From positions 22,086-86,085 of the forward strand of contig JAZTXG010000029.1 of NCBI GenBank assembly GCA_045636365.1: a DNA stretch of 64,000 nucleotides, written 5' to 3'. Source of the stretch: Eubacteriales bacterium. Its GTDB lineage: Bacteria > Bacillota > Clostridia > Oscillospirales > QAKW01. Below the pieces are notes generated by a model that saw only the letters and a program-made list of their open reading frames with translations, made no database searches and was not told the origin of the DNA. Each line of letters begins with the position of its first letter. Position 1 is the stretch's first letter. Below, in pieces: positions 26,527-46,004 of this stretch. The translations under genes and the position numbers were made by a program.

Positions 26527-26602
<76 letters not shown>

Positions 26603-28005: not shown

Positions 28006-28027
28006 AAAAGAGTCCCCTTTTTGGTTT

Positions 28028-28459: not shown

Positions 28460-28494
28460 AGCAGTTCCTTTCGCAGCCCTTTGGGGCTGCTTTT

Positions 28495-30027: not shown

Positions 30028-30045
30028 TGAAAACCTTTCATTAAA

Positions 30046-30951: not shown

Positions 30952-31022
30952 ATTTCCTCCGAATTTCGATAAAAATCTACATTAGATTATAGCAAAACAC
31001 GCTTGAAATTGCAACCATAAAT

Positions 31023-31084
31023 CCTGTTCGGCCCTGTGCGGTAATTTTTTCCTATAATGGAAGCAAGAAAGGTTTTGTCGACAA
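31023..31084 (+). promoter_or_regulatory. Putative activator-dependent promoter of the virion operon
   Basis: Direct repeat CCTGTTCGG (31023-31031) / CCTGTGCGG (31033-31041) in place of a -35, TATAAT at 31053-31058, palindrome TTGTCGACAA at 31075-31084. Confidence 0.55.
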
Positions 31085-31112
31085 GTCTTTCAATCCAGGA
31101 GGTGAACCGAAG

Positions 31113-31367
31113 ATGAACTTCACAGAATGTATTGCCAAAGAGGTTTCCCGCGCCGCCTCCATGACCTTGCCCGAATTGGAGGAAGCGTTGGAGAGCGGGC
31201 AACATCGAACGGTCGGAGAACTCACTGCCCTTTCCTTGGCCAAGAAAGCGGCGGAGGGAGCGATGGATGCGGTGAAAATGATTCGGGAACTTGCCAAAGG
31301 GGAGCAAGCAACATCCGATCTCCCGCAGATCGAGATCCGTATTGTGGGGCAAGGCGCAGATGAGTAA
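31113..31367 (+). CDS. Putative small terminase subunit (short, no obvious HTH)
   Basis: 84 aa overlapping TerL start; helical LAKKAAEG..DAVKMIREL core and C-terminal beta strand IEIRIV; RBS ggaggtg. Confidence 0.6.
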   Translation: MNFTECIAKEVSRAASMTLPELEEALESGQHRTVGELTALSLAKKAAEGAMDAVKMIRELAKGEQATSDLPQIEIRIVGQGADE

Positions 31368-32679
31368 TCTCTGTTCCATAGATATTACCCCGCTCCAATA
31401 CCAATTTCTTTCTGCCGCAGAGGATGAGATCCTCTTTGGCGGCGCCGCCGGAGGCGGGAAGAGCTTTGGGCAGCTGGTGGATGCGCTGCATTATGCGCTG
31501 ACCTATGCAGGCTCGCGGCAGTTATTATTGCGGCGGACTCTGCCGGAATTGGAAAATTCGCTGATTCGCACCGCATTGGAATTATATCCCTCTTCCATAT
31601 ACCATTATGTATCCTCCAAGCATACCGGGGTCTTTGCCAACGGCTCGTTGCTGGATTTCGGGTATTGCGATAGCGAGCGGGATGTATTTCGCTATCAATC
31701 GTCGGAATACGATGTCATTCGCTTTGACGAGCTGACGCATTTCTCCGAATCAATGTATCTTTACCTGATGTCCCGCTTGCGGGGTGCCAAGCCCTTTCCC
31801 CGCCAAATGAAAAGCACCACCAACCCCGGCGGGGTCGGGCACGATTGGGTCAAGCGCCGATTTATCGATCCCGCGCCGCCCAATACCCCGATCTCCGATC
31901 CGCTGGGAACCCGCAGGTTCATTCCGGCGCGGGTGCAGGATAACCGCTTTTTAATGGAGGGGGATCCTCAATATATCAACCGCCTTTTGCGGTTGCCGGA
32001 GCAGGAGCGCAAAGCCCTTCTGGAGGGGGATTGGGATCTTTGCGAAGGACGCTTTTTTGCCGATTGGCAGCGGGAGAAGCACGTCTGCGCGCCCTTTGAA
32101 ATCCCCGACCATTGGCGGCGCTATTGCGCGCTGGACTATGGCTTGGATATGCTGGCGGGCTTGTTTATCGCCGAGGATGAGCAGGGCTTTTTCTATGTAT
32201 ACCGCGAGGTATATGAATCGGGTCTGATCGTATCCCGCGCGGCATCCAGGCTGAAGGCGGCATCTCCCGCCCAATGCCCCTATTATGCACCGCCCGATCT
32301 ATGGAGCCGGCAAAAGGATTCGGGGAAATCCATTGTCGACCTGTTTCGGGAGAACGGAGTTCCGCTCACCAGAGTCAGCCCTGCCCGCTCGGCAGGCTGG
32401 GCGGTGCTGCAGGAGTGGTTGCTCGACCGTATGGATCGGGATGGAAATCTACGCCCCAGGCTGAAGATTTTTTCCACTTGTGTCAACCTGATCCGTTGCC
32501 TGCCGATGCTGCAATGGGACCCCGAGACCATCGGCGATTGCCGAACAACGCCCCACGAGCTGACTCACGCGCCGGATGCTCTGCGTTATTTTGCCATGGG
32601 CTATCCCGGTGTATCGAAACCCCGAACCATCAAGCCTCCATCCATACTCGGAGGCAACAGAAAGGAATTGATCATATGA
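31360..32679 (+). CDS. terL: Phage terminase large subunit (Terminase_6 type)
   Basis: Walker A GGAAGGGKS, Walker B IRFDE, STTNPGG motif III, nuclease ALDYG and HAPDALRY. Confidence 0.95.
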   Translation: MSNLCSIDITPLQYQFLSAAEDEILFGGAAGGGKSFGQLVDALHYALTYAGSRQLLLRRTLPELENSLIRTALELYPSSIYHYVSSKHTGVFANGSLLDFGYCDSERDVFRYQSSEYDVIRFDELTHFSESMYLYLMSRLRGAKPFPRQMKSTTNPGGVGHDWVKRRFIDPAPPNTPISDPLGTRRFIPARVQDNRFLMEGDPQYINRLLRLPEQERKALLEGDWDLCEGRFFADWQREKHVCAPFEIPDHWRRYCALDYGLDMLAGLFIAEDEQGFFYVYREVYESGLIVSRAASRLKAASPAQCPYYAPPDLWSRQKDSGKSIVDLFRENGVPLTRVSPARSAGWAVLQEWLLDRMDRDGNLRPRLKIFSTCVNLIRCLPMLQWDPETIGDCRTTPHELTHAPDALRYFAMGYPGVSKPRTIKPPSILGGNRKELII

Positions 32680-32873
32680 CGATTTGGATGCTGATGTTAT
32701 CTGTTTTATGGATGCTGCTTGCAGTCGCTGCCTATCGATTGGGGATGGCCGACGGTCTTTCCGCCGCCCGCCGCGGTCGATTGGCAGGCGGCAAAGATCC
32801 GATGAAGGATCAGCTGCTCCGCCGCATCGAGGCCTACGACGGCAGAAAGGATTCTTATGCAAAACACGAGTGA
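32676..32873 (+). CDS. Small single-TM phage protein
   Basis: MTIWMLMLSVLWMLLAVAAYRLG...IEAYDG; RBS aaagga; ATGA overlap with terL stop. Confidence 0.65.
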   Translation: MTIWMLMLSVLWMLLAVAAYRLGMADGLSAARRGRLAGGKDPMKDQLLRRIEAYDGRKDSYAKHE

Positions 32874-34380
32874 ACAAATCTGGAAAGAATATCAAGAAGG
32901 CTGCGCACTGCTGACCCGCGACGGTTTTTACGACCGAAGCGAAGAATGTCATAGCTTTTATGCCGGCGATCAGTGGCGCTATCTGCAGACCGATGGGGAA
33001 CGACTGCCGGTCTACAACATGATCGAACCGATTGTGAAATATAAGACCGCGGTGGTCGCTCAAAACAATCTGACGGTGAATTATAGCTTTGATACCTCGG
33101 ACCACCCTGCATTATCCACCATTGCCCATCAGGCGGCGCGATTGCTCAATCGCAATGCGCGCTTGCTTTGGGAGCAAAACCAAATGGACCAAAAATGCTG
33201 GGAAGCGGTGGAGGATGGCTGTGTCACCGGCGCATCCTACCTCTATTTCTATATGCACAACGGTAGGGTACAGGCGGAAGTGCTGGACGGTGTCAACCTG
33301 ATTTTCGGCGACGAACAAGAGCAGGATATCAACGAACAGCCGTATATTTTGATTGTGCAGCGCCGCTCGGTCCGTCAGGTCCAAAAAGAGGCGCGTGCCA
33401 ATGGCATCGATGAGCAGGAAATTGCACAAATTTTTCCCGATACCGACCTGCTTTGCCAAAGCGGAATGGATCGGTTGCATGAAAATGCATTGGAGGAAAA
33501 CCGCAAATGTATTTCCATCCTGAAATTTTATAAAAAGGACGGCAATGTCTGCTTTACCCAATCCACAAAGAACTGCGTTTATCATCCCGAAACGGTATTG
33601 GCAGGGCTTTCCCGCTACCCCATCGCGCCTTTTATTTGGGCGCGCCGCAAGGGGAGCTGCCGCGGCAGAGGCGCGGTGGAAGGGCTGATCGCCAATCAGA
33701 TCGCCGTCAATAAAAACCTTGCCCGTATGGATATCGCCATCCGCCGCTTTGCGTTTCCCAAGCTGGTGTATAACGCGCCGCGGATTCAGAATGTGGAGGA
33801 TATCGAAAAGATCGGTGCTTCCATCGCGGTGGATGATCCCAATGTTCGCATCGGGGACCTGATCTCCTATGTGCAGCCGGCAGGAATCAATACCCTTGCC
33901 TATAACTTTATGGGCAATATGATTTCCACCACCCGCGAGCTTTGCGGCGCGGGCGATGCGGTGACCGGTCAGATCAACCCCGAGCAGGCCAGCGGCGCCG
34001 CCATTGTGGCGGTGCGGGAGGCGGCCACCTTGAACTTAAATTTCGCGGTGGCGCAGTTGACACGCTTTATCGAGGATGTGGCATTGATTTGGTATGACCT
34101 GCTGCGGGCATATCATCCTGCAGGGCTGACGGTGGAATCGGAATTGATTCCCGGCAAGCTGCTGCAGGTATTGGAGCCGCGGGTGCGGATCGATCTTTCG
34201 CCCGCCAACCCCTTTTCCAAATTTGCGCAGGAGCAATCGCTGCAAAATCTTCTCAATGCAGGATATATCTCCTTTGCAGAATATGTGGAGGCATTGGATG
34301 AGGATGCCAATGCGCCCAAAGAAAAGCTGCGCTCTATTCTGGCGGCGCGCCCGCCGATGGAAGCGGTAGTGCAAGAATAA
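32857..34380 (+). CDS. Portal protein (P22/podovirus-like)
   Basis: 507 aa after TerL; FY.GDQW, N.I.PIV, G.G.VE.LI.NQ..VNK, ASGAAI patterns. Confidence 0.85.
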   Translation: MQNTSEQIWKEYQEGCALLTRDGFYDRSEECHSFYAGDQWRYLQTDGERLPVYNMIEPIVKYKTAVVAQNNLTVNYSFDTSDHPALSTIAHQAARLLNRNARLLWEQNQMDQKCWEAVEDGCVTGASYLYFYMHNGRVQAEVLDGVNLIFGDEQEQDINEQPYILIVQRRSVRQVQKEARANGIDEQEIAQIFPDTDLLCQSGMDRLHENALEENRKCISILKFYKKDGNVCFTQSTKNCVYHPETVLAGLSRYPIAPFIWARRKGSCRGRGAVEGLIANQIAVNKNLARMDIAIRRFAFPKLVYNAPRIQNVEDIEKIGASIAVDDPNVRIGDLISYVQPAGINTLAYNFMGNMISTTRELCGAGDAVTGQINPEQASGAAIVAVREAATLNLNFAVAQLTRFIEDVALIWYDLLRAYHPAGLTVESELIPGKLLQVLEPRVRIDLSPANPFSKFAQEQSLQNLLNAGYISFAEYVEALDEDANAPKEKLRSILAARPPMEAVVQE

Positions 34381-34384
34381 AAAA

Positions 34385-34445
34385 TCGCAGGTGAACAGCG
34401 CAAAAATCGCAAAATGATTCGCAGGTGAAGAGCGTAAAAATCACA
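34385..34445 (+). repeat. Two 27-bp tandem repeats in the scaffold gene leader
   Basis: tcgcaggtgaacagcgcaaaaatcgca (34385-34411) and tcgcaggtgaagagcgtaaaaatcaca (34419-34445). Confidence 0.85.
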
Positions 34446-34458
34446 GAAAGGTTCATAT

Positions 34459-35022
34459 ATGAGCGAATTGAATACCGCGGTGGAAACCGCACCGGAGCAG
34501 GAAACTGCTCCTCAAACAACCTCGGAAGAAAAGACAGCCGAGAAAGAAGAAATGTCTAAAGAAGAACGGAGCAAGCAGGCCTCTCGCCGACGCGCGCTGG
34601 AGCAGAAAGCCGAAGAACTGCGTGCCGATGCTCGCCAGGAACAATTGCGGCAGGAGGTTATGAACCATCCTTTGGTGAAGGAAGCCATGACCTTGCTGGA
34701 GGAGAACCGTTTTAAGCAGGATCTGGACCGTGTGCGCGCGGCCTATCCGAGCCTGACCGCCCAAAGCCCCCAAGAAGTAGGGGAAATCTATTGCCGATTA
34801 ATGGCAAGCGGGCAGGTGGATCCGGTGGTTGCCTATGAAGCGCAAGCCGCCGCCGATCGCCGCAGGGAACCGATCCCCGAAAACATGGTGAGCGCAAAAT
34901 CGGCCGGAGGAGCCGCGCTCTATTATTCCTCTCAGGAGCTGGATCGGCTGACCGAAAAGGATCTTAAGGATCCCGATGTTTTTCGGAAAGCCATCGCTTC
35001 ATTATCAAAATTAAGGAGTTAA
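34459..35022 (+). CDS. Putative capsid scaffolding protein
   Basis: Acidic N-terminus, coiled coil, C-terminal helix-loop-helix; lies between portal and capsid. Confidence 0.7.
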   Translation: MSELNTAVETAPEQETAPQTTSEEKTAEKEEMSKEERSKQASRRRALEQKAEELRADARQEQLRQEVMNHPLVKEAMTLLEENRFKQDLDRVRAAYPSLTAQSPQEVGEIYCRLMASGQVDPVVAYEAQAAADRRREPIPENMVSAKSAGGAALYYSSQELDRLTEKDLKDPDVFRKAIASLSKLRS

Positions 35023-35026
35023 AACT

Positions 35027-35842
35027 ATGTCTTTTTCTAATTTTAAACCCACCATTTGGAGCCGTTTTATTCAAACCGAGCTGGAAAAGAAATGCAAGCT
35101 GGTGGATGATTGCAACCGCCAGTTTGAAGGGGAAGCCCGCCTGGGTGGCAGAGTCAAGATTTTAGGCGCGATCGCCCCCGAAATCTTCGATTATAAAGCC
35201 GCTACAGGTATGGATGCTCCCCAGACCTTGCAGGGTGTCAGCGTCTATTTGGATCTGGATCAGGCAAAGGCGTTCAATTTTATGGTGGATGATCTGGATC
35301 GTTTGCAGTCCAATCCCGAGCTGATGCCCATCGTCTTGGAGGAGGCCAGCCGCAAGATGGCGGTCGCCCGCGATACTTATGTGGCATCCATTGCCAAAGA
35401 GAGCGGATTTTTCACCAATTCGACCAAGGTAACCACCCCCGCGCAGGCAAAGGCGTTGGTCGATGAAGCATTGCTTACTCTGCGTGAGCATGATGTGGAT
35501 ATTGCTGATAATGTATCGATCACCGTATCCCCCTTCTTCTATCAACTGCTGCGTGATGCCTTGACCGAACTCAAGACCAATAATGATGAGCTGATCGCCC
35601 GCGGTGTGGTCGGTATGTACGACTGCGCTAAGGTGGTATTGAGCAACAATCTTTATAACGACGGTACCGATGATTATATGATGGTTCGTACCAATAAGGC
35701 GATTGCTTTTGCATCTGCCATTGATGAAACCGAGGCCTATCGCCCCGAGAAGTATTTCTCCGATGCGGTCAAGGGTCTCAATGTCTTTGGCGGTAAATTG
35801 GTTCGTCCCAAGGAACTTGTTGTCATCAAGGCTCATAAATAA
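35027..35842 (+). CDS. Major capsid protein (P22 coat/gp5-like, HK97 fold)
   Basis: NFKPTIWS, NRQFEGE, L.LDQAK.F.F.VDD.D..Q, FSDAVKGL.VFG.K.VRP; strong RBS. Confidence 0.9.
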   Translation: MSFSNFKPTIWSRFIQTELEKKCKLVDDCNRQFEGEARLGGRVKILGAIAPEIFDYKAATGMDAPQTLQGVSVYLDLDQAKAFNFMVDDLDRLQSNPELMPIVLEEASRKMAVARDTYVASIAKESGFFTNSTKVTTPAQAKALVDEALLTLREHDVDIADNVSITVSPFFYQLLRDALTELKTNNDELIARGVVGMYDCAKVVLSNNLYNDGTDDYMMVRTNKAIAFASAIDETEAYRPEKYFSDAVKGLNVFGGKLVRPKELVVIKAHK

Positions 35843-35868
35843 TAATTGGAAAGAAAGGAATTTGAAGT

Positions 35869-36204
35869 ATGACTTATTTTGATGCTACTCACAATAAAAA
35901 TTACGTATATTTTGACACCGACGTGTTAAATCGTTGCCCAAAAGTAGTGGCATATCGTGTTCCGGAGGATGCGGAATATGCGCTTCTTTTGTTAGGCATT
36001 GAAGACCCTTCTACAATCACTATTAAAGCAGCAGATTCTGTTTTGGGCGGAAAAGATCAGATATTTCCGTGCGAGTGTGGTTATAACGGTGTATTTCTGG
36101 AATTAAGCACCTTTATTCAGCGTTCCGGTGAGCACAAGGGGTGCGTTTTGATCGAATGTGCCGAGGATTCGTTTGAGAGCGATTTGTTCATTTGCTCAAA
36201 ATAA
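35869..36204 (+). CDS. Putative head decoration/cement protein
   Basis: 111-aa beta-rich ORF directly after the capsid gene; strong RBS. Confidence 0.5.
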   Translation: MTYFDATHNKNYVYFDTDVLNRCPKVVAYRVPEDAEYALLLLGIEDPSTITIKAADSVLGGKDQIFPCECGYNGVFLELSTFIQRSGEHKGCVLIECAEDSFESDLFICSK

Positions 36205-36226
36205 AATATACATCCCGGAGGTAATG

Positions 36227-36745
36227 ATGATGACAATTCAAGCGATTTTAAAATGTGCCGCGGTGCTGTTGGGTGTGCCGGAGGGGGCGGTGGAGCAAGA
36301 TGCTGTCTATGAGCGGTTGCTTTCTGCCTTGGATAGCGCATTAGGGGAACTGGCACGATGTTTTCCTCTGCAGGCGCGGTGCAGAATTACTGTGGTCGAT
36401 GGTGCGGTGGCGCTTCCTGCCGCAGTGCTGACTCCGCGTGCGCTGCTTCGGGATGGAAAAAGAGTGCCATTGCAATTGGATGAAGGAAAGCTGATGGCAG
36501 AGGATGGGGACTATACCTTGGTGTATTACCGTGTCCCGCCGATGGCATCGGCGATGGATCGTTCTGCGATCCTGCCCTATCCCGAAGATCTTTTGCGTGC
36601 CTTGCCCTTTTATTGCGCCGCTCTTTGCGTCATGGGGGAGGATCAGGCATTATATCTGCGCTTAATGGAGCAGTATAACACCAAATTGGCGGCAGCGCTG
36701 GGCTATCGCCCTGCGGCGGCGGTGGAAGCGGAGGGATCGATGTGA
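36227..36745 (+). CDS. Putative head-tail adaptor (tail tubular protein A-like)
   Basis: Position; YYRVP...LP.Y.AA pattern of podoviral adaptors. Confidence 0.6.
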   Translation: MMTIQAILKCAAVLLGVPEGAVEQDAVYERLLSALDSALGELARCFPLQARCRITVVDGAVALPAAVLTPRALLRDGKRVPLQLDEGKLMAEDGDYTLVYYRVPPMASAMDRSAILPYPEDLLRALPFYCAALCVMGEDQALYLRLMEQYNTKLAAALGYRPAAAVEAEGSM

Positions 36746-38805
36746 GTTATCCGTTCCATTCGTTAAATCGTGCGTCTGCAGGACGGACCGTTTGTTCGGA
36801 GATCGGTTTTTCCGGCTTGGATGTTGCAGGTGGCGCATTTAAGATGCCCATCTCCCGTGCCTTTGATACCGAAAACTTAATCTGGGAAGGGTCCGCACTC
36901 AAGCGCCGCCCCGGCTATCGCCTTATGGAAAATTACAGTAAAAAGATCAACGGCATCTATTTTGTCGGAGAGCATAAAATCGTCCATGCCGGAACAAATC
37001 TGTATATGCAAGCAGGGGATAATGTACCAAAACTGCTGTTTGACCGGATGAACGATGCCGCCTCCTTTGGTGTGGTGCGTAAGCAAGAGGTGGAGCATCG
37101 CTGGTGCAATTCCTCGGAAATGTATGGCTGGAGCCGTGAAAGAAAGGTTGGAGATTTTCTCTTTATCAACGATGGTAAAAACTATCTGTTTTTCGATGGA
37201 GAGCAGGTCCACTCGGTGGCTGATACCCATTGGGGTGAATCGCTGCGGGTCGATCTGCATGGCGGAATGGTCTATTCTACTTATGCGAAAGTTCCCATCA
37301 GCATTACCGGTAAACTTCCCAACGGGGACCACGGCGACGTGGATCCCCGCGGGGATAACCGCCTAAGCCAGTTCCGTTGCGAAAGCTTTTATGTGGACGA
37401 TAAAAAGGACTATACCGAGTTTGTTTTGGATCGCTACTATAAAGATTGCAATGATGGAATCCCCACCGAGATCCAGATCCGCGACAGCAACGGTGTCTGG
37501 CGCAACTACTGCTGCATCAGTGTGGATTTTTATTTAAACTATGATGATGTCCGTACCAAGCTTCAGATCGATACCCCCATCAAGGGCGGGATGCCCTTTT
37601 CCTTTGATACCGCAAGCGGGAAGATTGTGAACCTTGGCTACGGCAGCTCCTATATCGCCAACGACGGTATGGACAATCTGCGGATCACCTATGCAGTGCA
37701 TAAAGAGGCTCCCACCGCCTTGACCGGAGCAACGGTGCAGGGGCTTTATGGCACCGATGGGGCGGATAATGTCTTGTTTCTTGGCGGAAGCGAGCAATCC
37801 CCCGGCATCGATGCCTTCAGCGCCCGCGATGATTTCTTTTGCTTTTATGCCACCTCGGTCGAGCGGCTGGGCAACGAGCAGGTGCCCATCACAGGCTATA
37901 CCCGATTAAGCGATGGGCGGATCGCGGTCCTGAAAAACGATCCCAACGATTCCAATGTCTATTTTCGGACCCATAAGACTGTTTCGGTGGGCGCGACCCA
38001 AAGCGGAGAGGCGTATCAGGTGGATGCCTTCCCTTCCAAAGCGGGAGCTGCGGTGGAAGGCTGCATTTCCCCTCATTCAGTCGGAATTGCAGGGAATGAA
38101 CCGATTTTCTTGGCCGAATCGGGGTTATACAGTGTCCGCAGTGTCTCCAATGAATTAATTAATCTGGATGAGACCGTGCGGCGCAGCCTGCCTATCGACC
38201 CCTTGCTTTGCAAGCAGAATGCTGCCGATGCGCGCAGTATTCGTTGGCGCGAATATTATCTTTTGGTTTTCGGGAACCTTGCATTGCTCACAGACGGTCG
38301 GAGAGACACCGGCGGAATGCTTCGCTTTTTGAAATGGCGATTCGGTCATAAAATTACCGCCTTGGGCAAGAACGGAAACACGCTGTATTTGGGCGATGCG
38401 GAAGGGAAGGTCTTTGAATTCGGCGGCGCGGAAACGGATGCCGATTTGGAGAACGAAGCGTTCTGGCAGACCAATCTTTCCGAAGATTCCCGCGGCGCCC
38501 GCCAGATCCTCAAGCAGCTTTTGGTGGCCGTCAGTCCGGATTACAAGGGCAAGATCAAAGCGGTTCTTTATCGCGAGCAGGTACCCTGCCCGCAGGTGTC
38601 CATGGCATTGAATCGTGTGGATTTTTCCGCATGGGATTTTGATGCACTCACCTTCGACGGCACCGATGCGATGCGTTGGGTGCAACTCCCTGTGGGTTCA
38701 TTGGCGGCGGATCGATATGCGATCCGCATCGATCTGTGTTCAGGGCAGAATCTGTTGCTCTGGGGAATGCGGATGGTGTATGAAAAAGGAGGAACGGTAC
38801 GATGA
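36742..38805 (+). CDS. Putative tail nozzle/stabilisation protein (P22 gp10 / tail tubular B-like)
   Basis: 687 aa, beta-rich; F.GLD, N......L.RRPGY N-terminus and GCIS..S motif; position after adaptor. Confidence 0.7.
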   Translation: MSYPFHSLNRASAGRTVCSEIGFSGLDVAGGAFKMPISRAFDTENLIWEGSALKRRPGYRLMENYSKKINGIYFVGEHKIVHAGTNLYMQAGDNVPKLLFDRMNDAASFGVVRKQEVEHRWCNSSEMYGWSRERKVGDFLFINDGKNYLFFDGEQVHSVADTHWGESLRVDLHGGMVYSTYAKVPISITGKLPNGDHGDVDPRGDNRLSQFRCESFYVDDKKDYTEFVLDRYYKDCNDGIPTEIQIRDSNGVWRNYCCISVDFYLNYDDVRTKLQIDTPIKGGMPFSFDTASGKIVNLGYGSSYIANDGMDNLRITYAVHKEAPTALTGATVQGLYGTDGADNVLFLGGSEQSPGIDAFSARDDFFCFYATSVERLGNEQVPITGYTRLSDGRIAVLKNDPNDSNVYFRTHKTVSVGATQSGEAYQVDAFPSKAGAAVEGCISPHSVGIAGNEPIFLAESGLYSVRSVSNELINLDETVRRSLPIDPLLCKQNAADARSIRWREYYLLVFGNLALLTDGRRDTGGMLRFLKWRFGHKITALGKNGNTLYLGDAEGKVFEFGGAETDADLENEAFWQTNLSEDSRGARQILKQLLVAVSPDYKGKIKAVLYREQVPCPQVSMALNRVDFSAWDFDALTFDGTDAMRWVQLPVGSLAADRYAIRIDLCSGQNLLLWGMRMVYEKGGTVR

Positions 38806-38984
38806 GTATCTGGAACAATTTAAAATTCGGTCCACAGGAGATGGAGGCCAAAAGCGTTTCAACTCTTGCAGATCGCCCGAACATCTCGGCAGAAGAGCTG
38901 AAGACACGGTTGGATAGCACCGATATTCGCTTACGCTTTAATCAACTGCTGGACCGATTGGAAGAAAAATTCAGCGAGGAATAA
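38802..38984 (+). CDS. Small protein resembling the N-terminal anchor of tail fibres/spikes
   Basis: 60 aa; V.TLADRP..SAEELK.RLD......FN.L; RBS ggagg; ATGA overlap. Confidence 0.55.
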   Translation: MSIWNNLKFGPQEMEAKSVSTLADRPNISAEELKTRLDSTDIRLRFNQLLDRLEEKFSEE

Positions 38985-38988
38985 TATT

Positions 38989-39807
38989 ATGATCAGTACA
39001 GTAGATAAACTGTTGCTCAGTTCCGACCAACAAGCGGAATTGGCAGAATATACGCGGGCTTATAATGCCGCGCAGGCCGCCGGTGACCAAGCCGGAATGG
39101 AGCTTGCTCATCGGCGCGCCGAAGCGTTGCGCGCCTCGGCGGGCTATTCCGGCGGCGATGCGGGAGATCGCTTTATGCTGCTGACCAACGCGCAAAATGC
39201 CCCCGATGGCTATAGTGGCTATAAAAAGCTCATCAATGATGTGGCAACCGGCGGAATGAACGCCATCGCTGCGGGATATCAGCAGCAGATGGCGCAGCTG
39301 GATCAGCAACGTGCCGCGCTGGAAGCCCAAGGGGCTCAAAATCAGGCGGCGGCACGCTCAGCGGCTTGGAACACCCAGCGGTTGGCGGCCGATGGTTTGC
39401 TGACCCGCGGGCTTGAAAATACAGGGATCGCCGATGTCATTACCGCCACAGCCCTGAATCAGGCGGCGGCAAATGCCTATCGGGCATTGCTGGATCAGCA
39501 GCAGGATCTTCAGGAAAATGATACTGCCCGCCTGGATGCCCGCGCCGATGCTATGGAGGATGCCGCTCAACTTCAAGGGGAGCTCGGAACACTTTTGGCC
39601 GATGCCTACCAATCTTTTTATGAAAAGGATGCCGAACGAAAGCAAGAGCAGCTACTTCGCCAGTGGAGTACCAACACCGATCTTGCGCTGCAGGATATGA
39701 AAAATCAGGCGGCGGAAAAGAAGCAGGAGAAGGATTATTACTATACTCTGGCATTGCAGCAGCTCAAGCGCCAATGGGAATTGGAAGATCAGGCAAAGGG
39801 CCGATGA
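38989..39807 (+). CDS. Putative internal virion (DNA ejection/pilot) protein
   Basis: Ala/Gln-rich helical 272-aa protein (AH..AE..RA..GYSGG..G) at the ejection-protein position. Confidence 0.55.
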   Translation: MISTVDKLLLSSDQQAELAEYTRAYNAAQAAGDQAGMELAHRRAEALRASAGYSGGDAGDRFMLLTNAQNAPDGYSGYKKLINDVATGGMNAIAAGYQQQMAQLDQQRAALEAQGAQNQAAARSAAWNTQRLAADGLLTRGLENTGIADVITATALNQAAANAYRALLDQQQDLQENDTARLDARADAMEDAAQLQGELGTLLADAYQSFYEKDAERKQEQLLRQWSTNTDLALQDMKNQAAEKKQEKDYYYTLALQQLKRQWELEDQAKGR

Positions 39808-40145
39808 TTCCCGAGGAGCATATTTCTAAGGAATATTGCGCCGCCCGCAGCGGCGGGATCGAGCGGGTGCAAAGAATGGCGGAACGCCGCCTGGACGGGC
39901 ACGGTCAGAAGCTGGATGATCTGACCGGCGCCTGCATCCGCCTGACCGCCGCTGTGGAGCGGGTGACGCTGATTCTGGAGCGGCAGGATCAGCGATTGGA
40001 TCGGCTGGAAAGCCGAGGTATTTTAGCGTTTTTGGAAAGTTCTGCAGGAAAAGCGATGATTCGTTTTATCGGCATCGGCGCGCTGGTGCTGCTTTCGGCA
40101 GGGCTTGGTATCAATGTTGTTCAATTATTAAAGGAGGTCTTTTAA
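39804..40145 (+). CDS. Coiled-coil + C-terminal TM protein (XhlA-like lysis accessory)
   Basis: RRLDGHGQKLD...RLDRLE coiled coil then TM helix; precedes holin. Confidence 0.6.
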   Translation: MIPEEHISKEYCAARSGGIERVQRMAERRLDGHGQKLDDLTGACIRLTAAVERVTLILERQDQRLDRLESRGILAFLESSAGKAMIRFIGIGALVLLSAGLGINVVQLLKEVF

Positions 40146-40403
40146 ATGCATTGCACAAAACAAACGATCATCCGAACGGTGGTTCTTTTGATCGCATTAT
40201 TGAATCAGATCCTTCTTTTCATCGGCAAAAATCCGTTGCCGTTCAGTGAGGAAGGAATCTATGAAGCGGTGTCTTTGGTGGTAACCGTCGGCGCAAGCCT
40301 TTGGGCATGGTGGAAAAACAACAGCTTTTCCATCCAAGCCGCGGAAGCGGATCGCTATCTGGCGGCGCTTCGGTCCATCGATGAAACGGAGGGAGAAGAA
40401 TGA
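40146..40403 (+). CDS. SPP1-family phage holin
   Basis: TIIRTVVLLIALLNQIL...G.NPLP...WAWWKNNS.S..A. Confidence 0.9.
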   Translation: MHCTKQTIIRTVVLLIALLNQILLFIGKNPLPFSEEGIYEAVSLVVTVGASLWAWWKNNSFSIQAAEADRYLAALRSIDETEGEE

Positions 40404-40993
40404 CCAACTTACCCATCACCGGTGCCTTTCGGGTCACCGCGGTCTATGGTCAGCAGGGGAAATACTGGGCAAATGGTCATAAGGGCATCGATCTGGTGGC
40501 CGATGATCATCGCATCTATTCCACCTGCGAGGGCGTGGTCAAAACCGTTGCCTTCGATGCGGATGGCTGGGGGCAGTATATCGTCGTGGAAGATCAAGCG
40601 GGGCTGCGCCATTATTTTTGCCATCTGGTCCGCGGCAGTGCCAAGGTCAAGGTGGGGCAGGCGGTCAATCCGCTGACTGTTATCGGTACCATGGGCGCCA
40701 CCGGCAATGTGACCGGCTTGCATCTTCATTATGAACTGCGCAAAGGCTCCACTGTTTTGGACCCTGCCGCTTGGCTGGGGATTCCCAATCAAGTCGGCAG
40801 CTATCATTCTTCTGATTTTGAGGTGAAAGAAATGCTTTATAAAGACCAAGCAGAGATCCCTGCATGGGCGAAAGAGGCTGTGGAAAAGGTGACCGAAAAG
40901 GGCTGGATGGAGGGCGATACACAGGGCAATTTCCGACCCAACGACCCCATCACCCGCGCCGAAATGGCGATGATCCTTTCCCGCCTGAATTAA
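40400..40993 (+). CDS. Endolysin: M23 peptidase + C-terminal SLH domain
   Basis: HKGID, CHL, TG.VTGLHLHYE; WAKEAV...FRPNDPITRAEMA; no signal peptide. Confidence 0.88.
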   Translation: MTNLPITGAFRVTAVYGQQGKYWANGHKGIDLVADDHRIYSTCEGVVKTVAFDADGWGQYIVVEDQAGLRHYFCHLVRGSAKVKVGQAVNPLTVIGTMGATGNVTGLHLHYELRKGSTVLDPAAWLGIPNQVGSYHSSDFEVKEMLYKDQAEIPAWAKEAVEKVTEKGWMEGDTQGNFRPNDPITRAEMAMILSRLN

Positions 40994-41021
40994 AAAGCCG
41001 CTCTGCATCGGCAGAGCGGTT
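40994..41021. terminator. Hairpin between endolysin and convergent NUDIX gene
   Basis: agccgctctgc-atcg-gcagagcggtt. Confidence 0.65.
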
Positions 41022-41030
41022 GAGAAAAAC

Positions 41031-41567
41031 TTATTTTTTTAATAAAGCGGCGGCTTTGAGGATGGCGTTTTGGGTCTTGCCGTCGGTGATTTCACCATCG
41101 AGCACCATCTGAAGCGCCTGCTCAAAGGGCAGGGAGACGACCTCTAAAAATTCATCGTCATCAAGATTATTTTTTTGAGGGATCAGGTTGCGCCCCAGAT
41201 AAAGATATGTCAATTCCCCGAGATATGCAGGGGAGAGTTCCATATAACCCAGAGGAGTTACCTCTTGGGGCAGAAACCCGACCTCTTCGGTCAGCTCCCG
41301 CACCGCGGTCTTCATCGGATCCTCGCCGGGCTCCAATTTTCCGGCGGGGATCTCTAAAAGAGTTTTATCCACCCCATAGCGGTATTGGCGCACCAGATAA
41401 GTCCTTCCGTTTTCATCGATGGGCAAGATGCCTGCACCGCCGCTATGGGCGATACGGTCGCGGGACGCAGTCTTTCCGTCGGGAAGTTCCACCGTTCCGC
41501 TGTATACCTGAAAGATCGGTCCGTCATAAAGGATGCGTTCTTCCAACTTTTTTTCGACAATAGACAT
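41031..41567 (-). CDS. NUDIX hydrolase (ADP-ribose pyrophosphatase, NudF-like)
   Basis: RQYRY, EIPAGKLE.GE....AVRELTEEVG Nudix box, DGKT. Confidence 0.92.
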   Translation of the reverse strand: MSIVEKKLEERILYDGPIFQVYSGTVELPDGKTASRDRIAHSGGAGILPIDENGRTYLVRQYRYGVDKTLLEIPAGKLEPGEDPMKTAVRELTEEVGFLPQEVTPLGYMELSPAYLGELTYLYLGRNLIPQKNNLDDDEFLEVVSLPFEQALQMVLDGEITDGKTQNAILKAAALLKK

Positions 41568-41706
41568 AGTAATCTTCACCTCACATCTATTATTTTAAAA
41601 GCCTTGTCGATTTTTGTCAAACGATTTCTCTTTACATTTTTGTCGAAATATGTTTTGATGAGAGTACTCCTTCGACGAAAACCGACACTGCTTCACGGAT
41701 GTCGAC
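41553..41706. promoter_or_regulatory. Cluster of Spo0A-box-like heptamers upstream of the XRE/activator cassette
   Basis: TTCGACA 41553-59, TGTCGAT 41605-11, TGTCAAA 41615-21, TGTCGAA 41641-47, TTCGACG 41671-77, TGTCGAC 41700-06. Confidence 0.55.
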
Positions 41707-41731
41707 CCCCGTATATAGAGGAGTAAAAAGG

Positions 41732-41926
41732 ATGTTTAATTATCTTTATATGAATCGGGTCCGTAGCGGACTCACCCAGCAGGAATTGGCGGCGCGCGCC
41801 GGCATTTCCAGACGCACAGTCTGCAGGCTGGAGCAAAGCGGCGCTTATCCGTCGCTGCGGGTAGGCTTGCAAATCAGCCGAGCGCTGCAATGCAGCTTTG
41901 AGGAGGTGTTTCCTCTTGGCTTGTAA
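41732..41926 (+). CDS. Small XRE/Cro-like HTH regulator
   Basis: R.RSGLTQQELAARAGISRRTVCRLE.....PSL....ISRAL.CSFEEVF. Confidence 0.85.
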   Translation: MFNYLYMNRVRSGLTQQELAARAGISRRTVCRLEQSGAYPSLRVGLQISRALQCSFEEVFPLGL

Positions 41927-42080
41927 ATGCAGAAACTGCGCTGCGGTATTTGCCGCTCCCGCGATTGCAATGGAACGCCACGGTTGCGATGGCCCGTGGT
42001 ATGAGCGGGTGGAGATCTGCCCTTATTGCCGTATTTCCGGTATGCTGGAGGTTCAGGACGATGCAGGTCTCACATATTAA
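41916..42080 (+). CDS. Small zinc-ribbon protein
   Basis: TTG start after gaggaggtg; CRNC..F..P ... CPYC. Confidence 0.65.
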   Translation: MACKCRNCAAVFAAPAIAMERHGCDGPWYERVEICPYCRISGMLEVQDDAGLTY

Positions 42081-42429
42081 ATATCTACGTAAAGAATTGG
42101 AAGAATACCGCTTGCTATTGGCATCCTTCCCCGAAGGGGGCGGCTGGCAGGCGCAGGTCTTTCGCAAAAAACTGCAAAAAGCCGCCGAGCATCTGGCGGC
42201 TGAATTATGGGAAATTTCCAAGGTGATCGGCGCAATCGACGATTCGGAATTAAGGTTGATTTTCCAACTGCGGTATTTCAGAGGTTATACCTGGGCAAGG
42301 GTGGCGGAAGAGCTTCCCACCACCCTTTCTGCCGATGGCGCTCGGATGAAACACGATCGGTATCTAAAAAAGGTTCAATCGGTCAAAAAGGAAGGCGCGA
42401 CAGGCTTGTCTTCGCTCCATAGTTCATAA
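42061..42429 (+). CDS. Phage late-gene activator-like protein (RinA/ArpU/DUF1492-like, sigma-region-4 HTH)
   Basis: I..IDDSELRLIFQLRYFRGYTWARVA........A..ARMKHDRYL. Confidence 0.75.
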   Translation: MQVSHIKYLRKELEEYRLLLASFPEGGGWQAQVFRKKLQKAAEHLAAELWEISKVIGAIDDSELRLIFQLRYFRGYTWARVAEELPTTLSADGARMKHDRYLKKVQSVKKEGATGLSSLHSS

Positions 42430-43022
42430 TGGAGATGGTCGGTCTCGCCGCATTCCAGAAGCATTGATTTTCCCACCGTTCCGATGATGTCGCCACGCTT
42501 TAATAACTGACCTTCCTTGACAGCAACGGTTGCTAAAGAAGCGTAGCGCGAAACCTTGCCGTCGGTATGGCGAACAGTGACCATATTTCCCATCAGGTCA
42601 TCCTGCTCCACCGTTTCTGCCACCCCTTCACATACATTGGCAACTTCGGTTCCGGCCGCGGCAGCGATATCGATGCCGTTATGGGTACGCCAATCCTTCA
42701 ATGTATAGGAATAGAGGGGCTTTTCAGGGGAATACTGAGCAATGATCTCTCCATTTTCGATGGGAGCGGAATATTCTGCGGCGGCAGCCTGCGGTGCTTT
42801 GGTTTCTTCCTTGTTTTCCAAAGGTTCTTCCCGTTCGTCGGGGATGTTTTCTTCTACCTTTTCTACCCCTTGGGTATTGGGTGTATCCAGCGGGGTTTCG
42901 GCCAGTTTTCGTTGGGAAGCGCGATAGGAAAGAAAGCTGACGCAGCCCACGGTCAGAACACATAAACCCAATACCAAATAATAGCCTTTGGATTTCAGAA
43001 AATTCAAAATCTTATCTTTCAT
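42375..43022 (-). CDS. spoIIQ: SpoIIQ-like M23 membrane protein
   Basis: KGYY.VL.LC N-terminal TM, YS.TL.DWRTHNGID, HLHYE; downstream of spoIID; SigF/G-type promoter. Confidence 0.8.
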   Translation of the reverse strand: MKDKILNFLKSKGYYLVLGLCVLTVGCVSFLSYRASQRKLAETPLDTPNTQGVEKVEENIPDEREEPLENKEETKAPQAAAAEYSAPIENGEIIAQYSPEKPLYSYTLKDWRTHNGIDIAAAAGTEVANVCEGVAETVEQDDLMGNMVTVRHTDGKVSRYASLATVAVKEGQLLKRGDIIGTVGKSMLLECGETDHLHYELWSEDKPVAPSFLTD

Positions 43023-43055
43023 TTTTCGGATCCTCTCATCAAATGGTTTTGTTGT

Positions 43056-43085
43056 TAATATGAGCAGGATCCGATCGGATTATTC
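43056..43085 (-). promoter_or_regulatory. SigF/SigG-type promoter of spoIIQ
   Basis: GAATA-N15-GCTCATATTA. Confidence 0.65.
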
Positions 43086-44036
43086 ATCGAAATGATATTT
43101 TTCCAGAGTGGTATGCGGATAATAATAAGCCAGAATTTCCTGATAAGTATATCCCTCTTCGGCGAGGACGCAGGCGCCGTGTTGGCTCATACCCACCTGA
43201 TGGCCATAGCCGCAGACCTTGAAAATGGCTTGGTCTTTTTTGAATTCCAAGGTGAATCGCGTGCTGCGTAAGCCAAAAAGGGTGCGGATTTCTTGACCGG
43301 TGTAGGTCTTATTACCCAAGCGGATGGTTTTTACCGAGCCTCCGTTTGTATGGGTAATTTCACCGAGGGTGCAATCTTCTTGATTCAAAATGTTTGAAAA
43401 TTCTTCTAAAGGCAGTGTCACTTCGGAACGGAAGTCTTTTGCCTGCTGGTCCCAAGAGGAATCTAATGATTGAAGATAGGGAATATCGGCGCCCCAAATA
43501 TCCTTTGCCGATTCGGTCTTTCCGCCGGAGATGGCATGAAATACGGTGTTTGCCGGCGCGTTATCATAAAGAACAGCGGTCCCTAATACCGCTTCGACTG
43601 CGAAATTTAAAATCGGCTCGGAAGATTCCAGCCAATCGTTGCCCCATTTTTCGGCGGCATCGGCAGGGGAAAGATAGGCTTTGCAATGGGCAGGGTTATC
43701 GCAGACATCGCCGCTATGCCCGAAATCGCTTTCGGGATGGCTTTGGATGCTTGCTTTGCGATGCAAGAGATAACTATAGGATGCCACCACCTGCGCCTTT
43801 AATGCTTCCTGCGGATAGGAGGCGGGCATTTCTCCCGCCAGAACACCCCATAAATAGTCCTTGAGCGGGAGTGTTTGGGTGGTTTGGCTCTCGGTGCAGT
43901 ATAAGGTGACGATGGAGCCTTTGGGTGGCTCGGGGATTGGCTCTTCTTCGAAAAAACCGACCTTTCCCAATATTAAAACAGCTATAAACGGCAAAAACAA
44001 AACGATAAAATATAAAACAATCCATTTTTTCTTCAT
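43080..44036 (-). CDS. spoIID: Stage II sporulation protein D
   Basis: YL.GVLAGEMPAS...EALKAQ, HCKAY, GYGH.VGMSQ.GA, ILAYYY. Confidence 0.93.
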   Translation of the reverse strand: MKKKWIVLYFIVLFLPFIAVLILGKVGFFEEEPIPEPPKGSIVTLYCTESQTTQTLPLKDYLWGVLAGEMPASYPQEALKAQVVASYSYLLHRKASIQSHPESDFGHSGDVCDNPAHCKAYLSPADAAEKWGNDWLESSEPILNFAVEAVLGTAVLYDNAPANTVFHAISGGKTESAKDIWGADIPYLQSLDSSWDQQAKDFRSEVTLPLEEFSNILNQEDCTLGEITHTNGGSVKTIRLGNKTYTGQEIRTLFGLRSTRFTLEFKKDQAIFKVCGYGHQVGMSQHGACVLAEEGYTYQEILAYYYPHTTLEKYHFDE

Positions 44037-44059
44037 TGGCGTTGATCTCCTTTGGTACA

Positions 44060-44088
44060 AGCCTATGAATCGTATCCGGAAAAAATGA
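44060..44088 (-). promoter_or_regulatory. SigE-type promoter of spoIID
   Basis: TCATT-N16-CATAGGCT. Confidence 0.6.
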
Positions 44089-44140
44089 ATAAAAAAACAC
44101 CCGAATGCATCGCATTCGGGTGTTTTGAATTTGGCTGAAA

Positions 44141-45004
44141 TTATGCCTTATTGACAGAACCGAACAGTTCCATCTTTTCCTTAACGGTGGCTTTGATTGC
44201 CTCGAAACCATCTGCCAAAAGCTTTCTGGGGTCAAAGCCCTTGCCCTGCAGATCCTTGCCTGCTTCCACATAAGCGCGGGTAGCAGCAGCAAAGGAGAGC
44301 TGGCATTCGGTGTTGACATTGATTTTTGCAACGCCCAGAGAAATGGCTTTCTGCACCATCTCGGCGGGGATACCGGTACCGCCATGGAGAACCAGAGGCA
44401 TTCCCTCGGTAGCGGCCTGAATCTTTGCCAGCGCGTCGAAGTCAAGACCTGCCCAGTTGGCGGGATATTTGCCGTGGATGTTGCCGATACCTGCGGCGAG
44501 GAAATCTACGCCCAGATCAGCAATCTTCTTGCACTCATCGGGATCGGCGACTTCGCCGCGGCCGACAACACCGTCCTCTTCGCCGCCGATGGAGCCGACT
44601 TCGGCTTCGACCGACATACCCTTTGCATTGGCAAGAGCGATAATTTCTTTGGTCTTTTCGATATTTTCTTCGATTTCATAGTGAGAACCGTCGAACATAA
44701 CGGAGGAGAAACCGTCGGCAATGACCTTTTTGGCGCCTTCATAAGAACCGTGGTCCAGATGAACGGCAACAGGGACGGTGATGTTCAGATCTTCGATCAT
44801 ACCCTTGACCATACCCATAACTGTCTTGTAGCCGCACATATACTTGCCGGCGCCTTCGGAAACACCGAGGATGACAGGGGAGCGGTTTTCTTCAGCAGTC
44901 AGAAGAATTGCCTTAGTCCATTCCAAATTGTTGATGTTGAACTGGCCCACAGCGTAATGACCTTCATACGCCTTGCGAACCATCTCTTTTGCAGAAACGA
45001 GCAT
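44141..45004 (-). CDS. fba: Class II fructose-bisphosphate aldolase
   Basis: HLDHG, SVMFDGS, GNIHG, LVLHGGTG, KINVNT. Confidence 0.95.
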   Translation of the reverse strand: MLVSAKEMVRKAYEGHYAVGQFNINNLEWTKAILLTAEENRSPVILGVSEGAGKYMCGYKTVMGMVKGMIEDLNITVPVAVHLDHGSYEGAKKVIADGFSSVMFDGSHYEIEENIEKTKEIIALANAKGMSVEAEVGSIGGEEDGVVGRGEVADPDECKKIADLGVDFLAAGIGNIHGKYPANWAGLDFDALAKIQAATEGMPLVLHGGTGIPAEMVQKAISLGVAKINVNTECQLSFAAATRAYVEAGKDLQGKGFDPRKLLADGFEAIKATVKEKMELFGSVNKA

Positions 45005-45149
45005 ATTTTTATAGCCTCCTAAAAAATTTTCATTAACGTTATTATAATTCAACCAAATAAAAAAATCAATATTTTCTTTGACTTTTTACATAATATGCGG
45101 TATATTATATCTATATAAATATAACTAGAATTTTGAAAGGAAATTTATA

Positions 45150-46004
45150 ATGAATAAAGTGATTATTTCTGCAGACAGCACTTGTGACCTGCCTGCCGAG
45201 CTGAAAGAGCGCTATGGAGTAAAGATTATTCCCTTATATGTCAATTTGGGGGACGATTCTTTAAAGGATGGGGAAGAGATCAACCCCGATATGATTTATA
45301 CGTTTGTGGCGGAAAAGAATCAGCTGCCCAAGACTTCTGCTGCCACCATTCCCGATTATCAAGAGTGGTTTGAAGGCTTTGTCAAGGAAGGCTATGATGT
45401 TCTGCATTTCAATATTTCTTCCACCATGTCGGTGACCCATCAGAATGCAAAGATGGCAGCCGAAGAAGTGGATGGAAATGTCTATGTCATCGATAGCGGA
45501 AATCTTTCCACAGGAATGTCTTTGCTGATTGCGGATGCCGCGGATATGATCGCGGAAGGCAAATCCGCTGAAGAGATTCATCAGGAAATTTTGAAGCGTA
45601 TTCCTTTGGTACGCGCCAGCTTTGTTGTGGATACGCTGGATTATCTCAAAATGGGCGGCCGCTGCTCTTCGGTGGCGGCATTGGGCGCCAACCTGCTCAA
45701 GCTGCATCCCCGCATCGCGGTTGTCGATGGTAAGATGGGTGTGGCGGAAAAATATCGCGGCGCCATTGATGGTGTAATCATCAAATATGCCCAGCAGATG
45801 TTGGAGCAAAATAAAGATAAGATTGTGGGCAAACGTTGCTTTGTCACCCATACCAAGTATAACCCCGAGGCCGTTCAAAAGGTCTACGATCTGGTGAAGG
45901 AATCGGGCTTGTTTGAAGAAGTGATTGAAAACACCGCAGGCTGCGTCATCACCAGCCATTGCGGTCCCGGCACCTTGGGTGTCTTGTTTGAGGTAACCGA
46001 ATGA
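45150..46004 (+). CDS. DegV-family fatty-acid-binding protein
   Basis: DSTCDL, PKTSA, IDS.NLS.G, L.MGGR, SHCGPG. Confidence 0.92.
   Translation: MNKVIISADSTCDLPAELKERYGVKIIPLYVNLGDDSLKDGEEINPDMIYTFVAEKNQLPKTSAATIPDYQEWFEGFVKEGYDVLHFNISSTMSVTHQNAKMAAEEVDGNVYVIDSGNLSTGMSLLIADAADMIAEGKSAEEIHQEILKRIPLVRASFVVDTLDYLKMGGRCSSVAALGANLLKLHPRIAVVDGKMGVAEKYRGAIDGVIIKYAQQMLEQNKDKIVGKRCFVTHTKYNPEAVQKVYDLVKESGLFEEVIENTAGCVITSHCGPGTLGVLFEVTE

Follow-up and report, generated by a model that had tools for sequence, protein, structure and literature searches.

What switches on a set of virion genes that has become a fixed part of a bacterial chromosome? The question is raised by a 64,000-nucleotide stretch of contig JAZTXG010000029.1 (assembly GCA_045636365.1, an Eubacteriales bacterium; the whole stretch is called the window and its genome G000), which carries a cluster of virion genes running from terS to a lysin gene and, beyond a host gene downstream of it, a cassette of three small genes at 41732-42429, here called XRE, Znr (for zinc ribbon) and ACT. 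Judged from sequence comparison, the cassette is probably the on-switch of this phage-derived particle cluster, which has been kept by a family of uncultured gut Clostridia. The family consists of three genera, and the comparison took in 48 other genomes, 29 of the genus of the window, 12 of the sister genus g19 and seven of the third genus, g18 (G numbers denote genomes and L numbers loci). All of the compared genomes are metagenome-assembled, and several come from animal gut samples.

The three open reading frames (ORFs) of the cassette lie on the plus strand, overlapping head to tail, between a nudF-like NUDIX hydrolase gene (41031-41579, minus strand; Pfam NUDIX, 3.5 × 10−16) and a SpoIIQ-like M23 gene (42375-43022, minus strand). 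XRE (41732-41926) encodes 64 amino acids (aa) with an isoelectric point (pI) of 9.8 and a Pfam HTH_3 match of 3.8 × 10−11. Znr (41917-42080) encodes a CxxC...CPxC zinc ribbon of about 54 aa, or of 60 aa if translation starts at TTG 41898; because GAGGAGG stands nine bases ahead of TTG 41917, the latter is the likelier start. ACT (42061-42429) has its own GGAGG and ATG inside the 3′ end of Znr and encodes a basic, helical protein of 122 aa (14.0 kDa, pI 9.5) with a C-terminal helix-turn-helix (HTH) like that of sigma region 4. The overlaps are 10 nt between XRE and Znr (29 nt with the Znr start at 41898), 20 nt between Znr and ACT, and 55 nt between ACT and the convergent spoIIQ. Orthologues stand in the same order in 19/19 short loci of the genus, with Znr missing from two (G017 and G023). 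The ratio of nonsynonymous to synonymous substitution (dN/dS; Nei-Gojobori, nine species pairs, where dS was unsaturated) was 0-0.35 for XRE, Znr and ACT, comparable to the flanking housekeeping genes; a TerL value for the window and G004 (dN 2.15) was ignored as a misalignment artefact. All three genes are real and under purifying selection, and the arrangement given in a preliminary description of this DNA, three small overlapping genes between nudF and spoIIQ at some 11 kb from the terS promoter, is confirmed by the ORFs, their conserved order and their dN/dS, with 11.0 kb between the start of ACT and the −10 element of terS (31053). As a separate observation, there is no terminator between the converging ACT and spoIIQ genes (42375-42429), and transcriptional interference with the sporulation gene is possible.

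ACT is a divergent member of phrog_36, a group that takes in DUF1492-type proteins, and is a member of no curated model; this placement follows from its phrog_36, remote-profile and fold matches. Among the PHROGs it matched phrog_36 ('transcriptional regulator') at 7.2 × 10−12 and phrog_248 ('transcriptional activator') at 0.005. The former was also matched by 8/8 distant relatives from the sister genera, a resident prophage and two viral contigs, and one viral relative passes the Pfam DUF1492 model, with 28.8 bits against a cut-off of 21.5. The close relatives of ACT comprise 45 proteins, all with at least 50% identity, and two weak matches, none of which has a name or a Pfam domain; GenBank phage records yielded two weak, unannotated matches. 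A profile built from 23 close relatives retrieved 1729 proteins at E ≤ 10−3, and 47 at 10−10, from 1.84 billion representatives, mostly proteins of 100-150 aa aligned at their C-terminal end. When 61 of the remote profile matches were scanned, DUF1492 was found at E ≤ 10−3 in 11, six of them above the cut-off; Sigma70_r4 or r4_2 gave sub-threshold matches in about a dozen, and DUF722 matched one. The AlphaFold (AF2) model of ACT (pLDDT 84) has a long helical hairpin and then three helices forming the HTH, and its top rows among the predicted viral structures of BFVD are phage Sigma70, DUF1492, sigma-70 region 4 and transcriptional activator proteins (TM up to 0.74, E from 10−3 to 4 × 10−2). 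In the wide VIA-align comparison the N-terminal hairpin matched generic coiled coils alone, which is uninformative.

The preliminary description had read in ACT the sigma-region-4 HTH of RinA-, ArpU- or DUF1492-like proteins. The phrog_36 and fold matches point to such a kinship, but it is weaker than that description implied: the single Pfam hit, to Sigma70_r4 (E 0.0066), is below threshold at 16.4 bits against a cut-off of 24.1. Among PDB sequences the best match of the profile was region 4 of SigK (E 0.012), and NCBIfam returned weak models of extracytoplasmic-function (ECF) sigma factors in the C-terminal part (E 0.008-0.08). ACT gave no Sigma70_r2 match, and because region 2 is absent it is not a sigma factor. 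Alignment of the orthologues places the conserved core at approximately residues 1-105; the variable tail beyond it is read-through into the 3′ end of spoIIQ. The tail motif GS.GLSS.QSS looks conserved but is what the spoIIQ end gives when read in the reverse frame.

This placement brings ACT close to the late activators of temperate phages. The Ltr superfamily of Bacillota siphophages takes in RinA, ArpU, LtrA (Sigma70_r4), LtrB (DUF1492) and LtrC (Quiles-Puchalt et al., PMC3753634; PMC3152322). Its members are described in that work as small basic proteins under cI control, whose C-terminal part binds direct repeats upstream of terS and which are the sole phage proteins needed to switch on the packaging and lysis genes (PMC3753634). 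ACT is likewise small and basic, with a C-terminal DNA-reading part and the same type of fold; it has a cI/XRE-type repressor as a neighbour, XRE being first in the cassette here and ImmR/ImmA taking that place in the sister genera; it shares phrog_36 with a DUF1492-positive phage protein; and there are direct repeats at the terS promoter of the window, which lacks a −35 element. In contrast to the Ltr proteins, which are encoded before terS, ACT follows 11.0 kb downstream of the terS promoter, on the far side of a host gene, and has no linkage to the operon in the sister genus. The cluster that it would serve is fixed in the chromosome and has no replication genes; ACT has a zinc ribbon either as a partner or as a fused domain and falls outside the RinA, ArpU, DUF1492 and Sigma70_r4 sequence models, and the virion genes here are podovirus-like (P22-type portal, SU10 adaptor) and not siphovirus-like.

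The terS promoter (31026-31058, plus strand), delimited by a footprint over 13 species, has the features expected of a target. Box 1, GTTCG (31026-31030), and box 2, GTGCG (31036-31040), are direct copies at about −38 and −28, with centres near −36 and −26, and a 12-nt spacer separates box 2 from a TATAAT −10 element (31053-31058). No −35 hexamer, nothing like TTGACA, is present 17 bp from the −10, and because it is absent the promoter looks activator-dependent. Across the 13 species of the genus the site follows the divergent promoter of a diacylglycerol-kinase-like gene (DAGK) and reads AAATCCTGTTCGcc-N3-GTGCG (CTGTTCG-N5-GTGCG), a T-rich 12 nt and cTATAATg. The corresponding element of g19 is TGTTCGTTTTGTTCG, 11 nt and then the −10 in 6/7 loci, the seventh having diverged copies, and an exact copy of the boxes is found at the terS promoter in 5/5 g19 genomes. 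Within g18, G041 has GTCCG-N4-GTCCG, 11 nt and TACAAT, and G043 and G044 have GTCCC boxes with other spacing.

Two other candidate operators at terS were tried and rejected. A perfect palindrome in the leader, TTGTCGACAA (31075-31084), is shared by the window and G004, its closest relative, only, and the terS leaders of other species have unrelated hairpins or are lacking. A LexA site, searched for with the Cheo box consensus, did not fit either: the boxes at terS are direct and not inverted, no Cheo-like site occurs in the window, and the seven sister-genus loci gave one, which is unrelated.

We found that ACT and the capsid gene co-occur in most of the family. In the first set of genomes, ACT was present in 22/24 others of the genus and in 0/16 genomes of other families of the order. 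With the full set, the ACT profile and the capsid were found, respectively, in 26 and 29 of the 29 other genomes of the genus, in 12 and 12 of the 12 g19 genomes (ACT at E about 10−14, capsids 68-72% identical), and in 4 (weakly) and 6 of the seven g18 genomes. Both genes are thus present in 42 of the 48, as the preliminary description would lead one to expect among relatives, here all kin genomes; five have the capsid alone, one (G046, 94% complete) has neither, and none has ACT alone. In two of the capsid-only genomes (G015 and G001) the contig ends exactly at the cassette. A third, G048, lacks nudF, DAGK and spoIID as well, and its capsid is a 50% paralogue. The remaining two, G045 and G047, are 84-86% complete and belong to the genus in which ACT is very diverged.

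The sister genus is the most telling comparison. In g19 the ACT homologue is one protein of 151-174 aa (7/7 loci), whose C-terminus is colinear with ACT (44%, 7 × 10−14) and whose model places a beta-rich ribbon ahead of the five helices seen in ACT. Its gene is divergent from genes for an HTH_3 repressor (2.3 × 10−10) and a Peptidase_M78 ImmA/IrrE protein (3.4 × 10−8), which run into nudF and rlmH, and its TTGACA promoter is surrounded by inverted AACAAC/GTTGTT repeats. ACT and the capsid are on different contigs in 12/12 g19 genomes, no virion gene occurs within 17-20 kb around ACT in 7/7 loci, and in G053 ACT is at least 88 kb from either contig end. The regulator is therefore unlinked from the operon outside the genus of the window, and any action on the sister-genus operon would be exerted from an unlinked site. 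In g18 the ImmR-ImmA module faces separate zinc-ribbon and ACT genes; in one g18 genome (L063, G041:C63, 9140-10382) a 242-aa gene lies between these two. The compact g19 cluster of approximately 11 kb (L066-L071, L077) has flanks that differ between species, with one pair sharing a flank.

Phages themselves carry comparable arrangements. A true prophage of G010 has a phrog_36 protein gene directly upstream of terS-TerL, and the viral contig L101 carries immA and immR followed, in the opposite direction, by a small xre and an ACT-like gene, behind which come ORFs of 435 and 159 aa, which by their size and order only may be sheath-like and tube-like. Because of these two contexts the cassette can be read as a normal phage switch reduced to a minimum. 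The preliminary description had called it a minimal remnant of an early region, and here our reading departs from it: the module has been rewired, since its XRE is not an ImmR orthologue and ImmA was not found in G000.

XRE is presumed to be the repressor or autoregulator of the cassette. Its HTH_3 match, at 43.3 bits against a cut-off of 23, identifies an HTH of the Cro/C1 type; it is 53-100% identical across 19/19 genus loci, and showed no significant similarity to the ImmR of the sister genus. The divergent control region ahead of it (41580-41731) was examined by promoter scan and box counts. The nudF promoter (41620..41592, minus strand; TTGACA-17-TAAAAT) lies back to back with a sigma-A-type promoter of the cassette (plus strand, −35 TTTACA near 41631), and three GTCGA-N5-GT boxes (41606-41617, 41642-41653 and 41701-41712) are candidate operators, and box A among them also serves as the nudF −35. 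The count of such boxes over 21 loci was 30, where shuffles averaged 0.6, a contrast inflated by relatedness, and they may be the XRE operators. An HTH repressor together with Peptidase_M78, the pair that defines ImmR/ImmA, was present in the sister genus and absent from the window.

Znr had no family match in Pfam, PHROGs or NCBIfam. Its ORF was detected in 17/19 genus loci, and in the 17/17 orthologues the four cysteines of its two CxxC pairs, N10, G26 and P39 are invariant. Znr is also colinear with the N-terminus of the fused sister-genus protein (27% identity, E 0.002), with both CxxC pairs aligned. The zinc ribbon and ACT belong together, as one protein in one genus and as separate genes in two.

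From these results we propose how the cassette would work. It would be transcribed from its own sigma-A-type promoter, 11 kb from the terS promoter, and XRE, as the first gene of the transcript, would set the cassette level through the GTCGA-N5-GT boxes. ACT, taken as a small basic activator of the Ltr type nearest to the DUF1492 and Sigma70_r4 kinds, with its N-terminal hairpin and C-terminal HTH, would diffuse to the terS promoter and bind the two direct GT(T/G)CG boxes. Bound there, it would replace the missing −35 contact, and RNA polymerase would start the operon from terS to the lysin gene; the zinc ribbon, fused to the activator in the sister genus, may be a partner domain of ACT. We consider it likely that the cassette is devoted to regulating a virion cluster passed on by vertical descent, with ACT as an Ltr-type trans activator of the terS operon. 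The preliminary description had likewise taken the cassette for a trans-acting late activator, a reading that comparison supports in part because of the phyletic pattern, the unlinked ACT of the sister genus and the conserved terS promoter. A wider version is plausible, though we hold it with less than even confidence: the cluster would be a family-wide, podovirus-derived element, either like a gene transfer agent (GTA) or a lysis particle, with a sole dedicated Ltr-type regulator acting in trans whose input has been rewired from a damage-type ImmR/ImmA switch in the two other genera to a protease-less operon of XRE, zinc ribbon and activator in the genus of the window.

Several results weigh against the activator interpretation. 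In the hidden Markov model search of 42061-42429, phrog_36 was matched but no RinA, ArpU or DUF1492 model of Pfam or NCBIfam was, ACT passing no curated threshold in either collection (we take TIGR01636 to be the RinA model and TIGR01637 the ArpU model). Foldseek matched ACT to no solved structure at E ≤ 10−3, the best being ECF sigma region-4 chains. Peptidase_M78 (PF06114, ImmA/IrrE), a possible induction input, had no match anywhere in G000, which is 98.4% complete. Because the compared genomes are kin and both genes are near-universal, their co-occurrence is weakly discriminating, and the class with neither gene is a single genome. The pattern of boxes plus −10, which is loose, has one site in G000, at terS, and 0-2 in shuffled genomes. 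In g19, 14 sites at no more than one mismatch equal the 14 of a reversed-pattern control; the signal is confined to where the boxes stand and to their exact copies. Two g19 genomes have a second exact box-plus-−10 promoter ahead of non-virion genes, so that either the regulon may extend past the operon or a different factor may use the boxes; the GT(T/G)CG boxes could be bound by a host protein instead of ACT. These extra exact box pairs, 11 nt from a −10, lie at ~4009 of L078 (G057:C72), before a DUF3800 gene, and at ~794 of L079 (G054:C29), before DUF4417, a small gene and DUF2247.

Other explanations of the cassette were also weighed. It might be a regulator that the host has co-opted for other genes, whether accessory or defence-like genes, nudF or sporulation genes, and whose proximity to the operon is accidental. 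The nudF-ACT linkage is common to two genera whereas the operon linkage is not, the cassette and nudF promoters are back to back, ACT converges on spoIIQ with its 55-nt overlap, and the extra exact promoters before DUF3800 and DUF4417/DUF2247 in 2/5 g19 genomes would fit a role beyond the virion genes. However, the terS promoter is the only conserved site of the box type (13/13 in the genus and 7/7 sister-genus loci, one diverged), the single box site of G000 is at terS, phage relatives of ACT are placed before terS or structural genes, and nudF is dispensable, G019 and G021 having lost it and kept the cassette. We regard co-option as unlikely.

That host factors alone drive the operon, and that the cassette is a decaying leftover of the early region of a prophage, or of an integrative element with a Tn916-like trio of XRE, small protein and sigma-like protein, and no longer controls anything, seems to us quite improbable. 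The cassette is intact in 26/29 other genomes of the genus and kept in another form in the sister genera, and the three genomes without ACT are two contig ends (G015 and G001) and G048. Its dN/dS of 0-0.35 is like that of neighbouring housekeeping genes, the −35-less terS promoter looks activator-dependent, and no conjugation or integration genes are nearby. Decay would nevertheless account for the ImmA not found in G000, the loss of Znr in two species, the running of the ACT tail into spoIIQ and the failure of ACT to pass any curated family threshold. ACT could also act negatively, as a mimic of region 4 or an anti-activator that keeps a lethal operon shut until XRE or another signal relieves it. 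A region-4-like domain with no region 2, boxes that overlap the place of a would-be −35 contact, and the tight repression needed by an operon that causes lysis would be consistent with such a role. A promoter without a −35 needs help and not a block, though, and the sister-genus ACT, which stands behind an ImmR/ImmA switch and a strong TTGACA promoter, has an induction-type layout. The tested members of the related Ltr families are all described as activators (PMC3753634), and a negative ACT appears very improbable. Activation of the terS operon by ACT remains the reading that we prefer.

nudF bears on how the activator came to lie beyond a host gene. Judged by its relatives, nudF is a host gene: it matches NudE (NCBIfam, 8 × 10−24, below the cut-off) and has single homologues, 38-46% identical, in 12/16 genomes of other families, where its synteny is not conserved (9/9 loci). 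One g18 genome, which has neither cassette nor operon, carries nudF at 1.3 kb from spoIIQ. Searches found no nudF in G001, G007, G015, G019 and G021. The cassette of G019 and G021 comes straight after the lysin gene; because the first few nudF codons and the whole nudF promoter remain there, the nudF-less state is a derived deletion. At the nudF-deleted loci (L049, 6545-6600; L009), a strong stem-loop with a T run closes the lysin gene against the nudF 5′ remnant. The cassette had been described as split from the virion operon by a host gene. A host gene does separate them here and in most species, but not in G019 and G021, where nudF is deleted and the cassette abuts the operon. The notion of a split itself is not borne out, as gene order indicates that the linkage of nudF and cassette, shared with the sister genus, is older than that of operon and nudF. 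The order terS...lysin / nudF / regulators is a circular permutation of nudF / regulators / terS...lysin, and it could stem from an element with its activator before terS that had picked up nudF, an idea to which we give low weight.

The presumed target, the terS-to-lysin cluster (31113-40993, plus strand; ~10 kb), was defined by Pfam and PHROG matches and is flanked directly by DAGK and nudF. It begins with terS (31113-31367, 84 aa) and TerL (31363-32679, the real start being ATG 31363) and continues, on the same strand, with a P22-like portal gene, a scaffold-like gene, the capsid gene (35027-35842; phrog_267, 5 × 10−36), an SU10-adaptor-like gene, genes for a 687-aa and a 272-aa protein, and an M23+SLH lysin gene (40400-40993). 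Pfam and PHROG scans revealed no integrase or replication gene in the cluster, and no conjugation or integration genes were found nearby. A search for att-like flanking repeats found none, an Rfam scan of 28000-46000 found no family, and the sole tRNA found is at 26527-26602. TerL (71-94% identical) and the capsid (78-92%) are present in 24/24 genomes of the genus. The order DAGK / terS...lysin / nudF / XRE-(Znr)-ACT is the same in the 11/11 genomes with one spanning contig, with spoIIQ-spoIID next after the cassette in nine of them. Given the fixed locus and a capsid in 47/48 family genomes, the cluster is not a recent prophage and would be vertically inherited. It is a candidate GTA-like or lysis-particle element of podovirus-like type; of the two marks of GTAs, vertical inheritance without replication or integration genes and the packaging of host DNA, the former is supported by the same position in 11/11 genomes, the capsid in 47/48 and the direct flanks, DAGK and nudF.

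Further observations concern the cluster and its relatives. A 199-aa ORF in another frame (32274-32873) overlaps the last 400 nt of TerL. In each of the 11 genus loci tblastn recovered it almost end to end, with 45-85% identity; the ORF may have arisen by overprinting, or the conservation of the region may produce the frame as an artefact. Between the portal and scaffold-like genes, the gap at 34385-34452 holds two tandem 34-nt copies that are 82% alike. A second, larger relative of the cluster occurs at L032-L035 and L037-L039 (G018, G007, G019, G006, G024, G011 and G002), with TerL at 48-53% and capsid at 49-67% identity by tblastn; its genes are ordered as in the sister genera, the lysin gene standing between those for portal and scaffold, its terS is long and its promoter is different. 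These paralogous elements (L032-L040) were rejected as carriers of ACT after a profile search of six-frame ORFs from nine loci found nothing better than E 1.5, and their terS promoters are without GT(T/G)CG boxes.

Three regulatory systems invite comparison with the cassette. Xpf was reportedly described by McDonnell in 1994 as a positive control factor of PBSX, and the regulators of PBSX lie inside the element, upstream of the late genes, unlike the cassette of the window. PBSX resembles the present case as a domesticated defective phage with a terminase-first late operon, one sigma-related factor and a repressor of the XRE family. Xpf of Bacillus subtilis PBSX is described as a 20-kDa group IV sigma factor with regions 2 and 4 (PMC10141391), whereas ACT has a region-4-like domain only. 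The likeness to Xpf that had been suggested for the cassette consequently holds for the role and not for the protein, since ACT, without region 2, is no sigma factor. GafA of the Rhodobacter capsulatus GTA is reported to be a direct activator encoded away from its cluster (PMC6363796; PMC9638019) that works through the omega subunit of the polymerase in Alphaproteobacteria (PMC9638019; PMC6363796), and depending on the clade it is a single protein or is encoded by an operon of two genes (PMC9638019). ACT, too, can lie away from the cluster, and the variation of GafA parallels that of Znr-ACT, which is a single protein in one genus and two proteins in the other two. The fold of ACT is Ltr-like and its host a member of the Clostridia; the likeness is one of role, and a sequence relation is not expected. 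ImmR/ImmA pairs are the repressor-protease switches of ICEBs1 and of temperate phages of Bacillota. The sister genera have such an HTH_3 repressor and Peptidase_M78 gene, divergent from the ACT gene; in contrast, the window has neither ImmA nor ImmR, their place being taken by a 64-aa XRE oriented like ACT.

If the reading with a rewired input is true, this would be the first Ltr activator that serves a domesticated element from outside, in parallel to the logic of GafA. The family would then present one output module in naturally varied combinations with its inputs, a fused or split activator under ImmR/ImmA or XRE. The predicted on-switch, one small gene together with a 35-bp promoter element, may give a handle on GTA-like particles in uncultured gut bacteria. 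Across some 48 species-level genomes, an Ltr activator seems to have outlived its phage and to have become the distant control of a chromosomal cluster.

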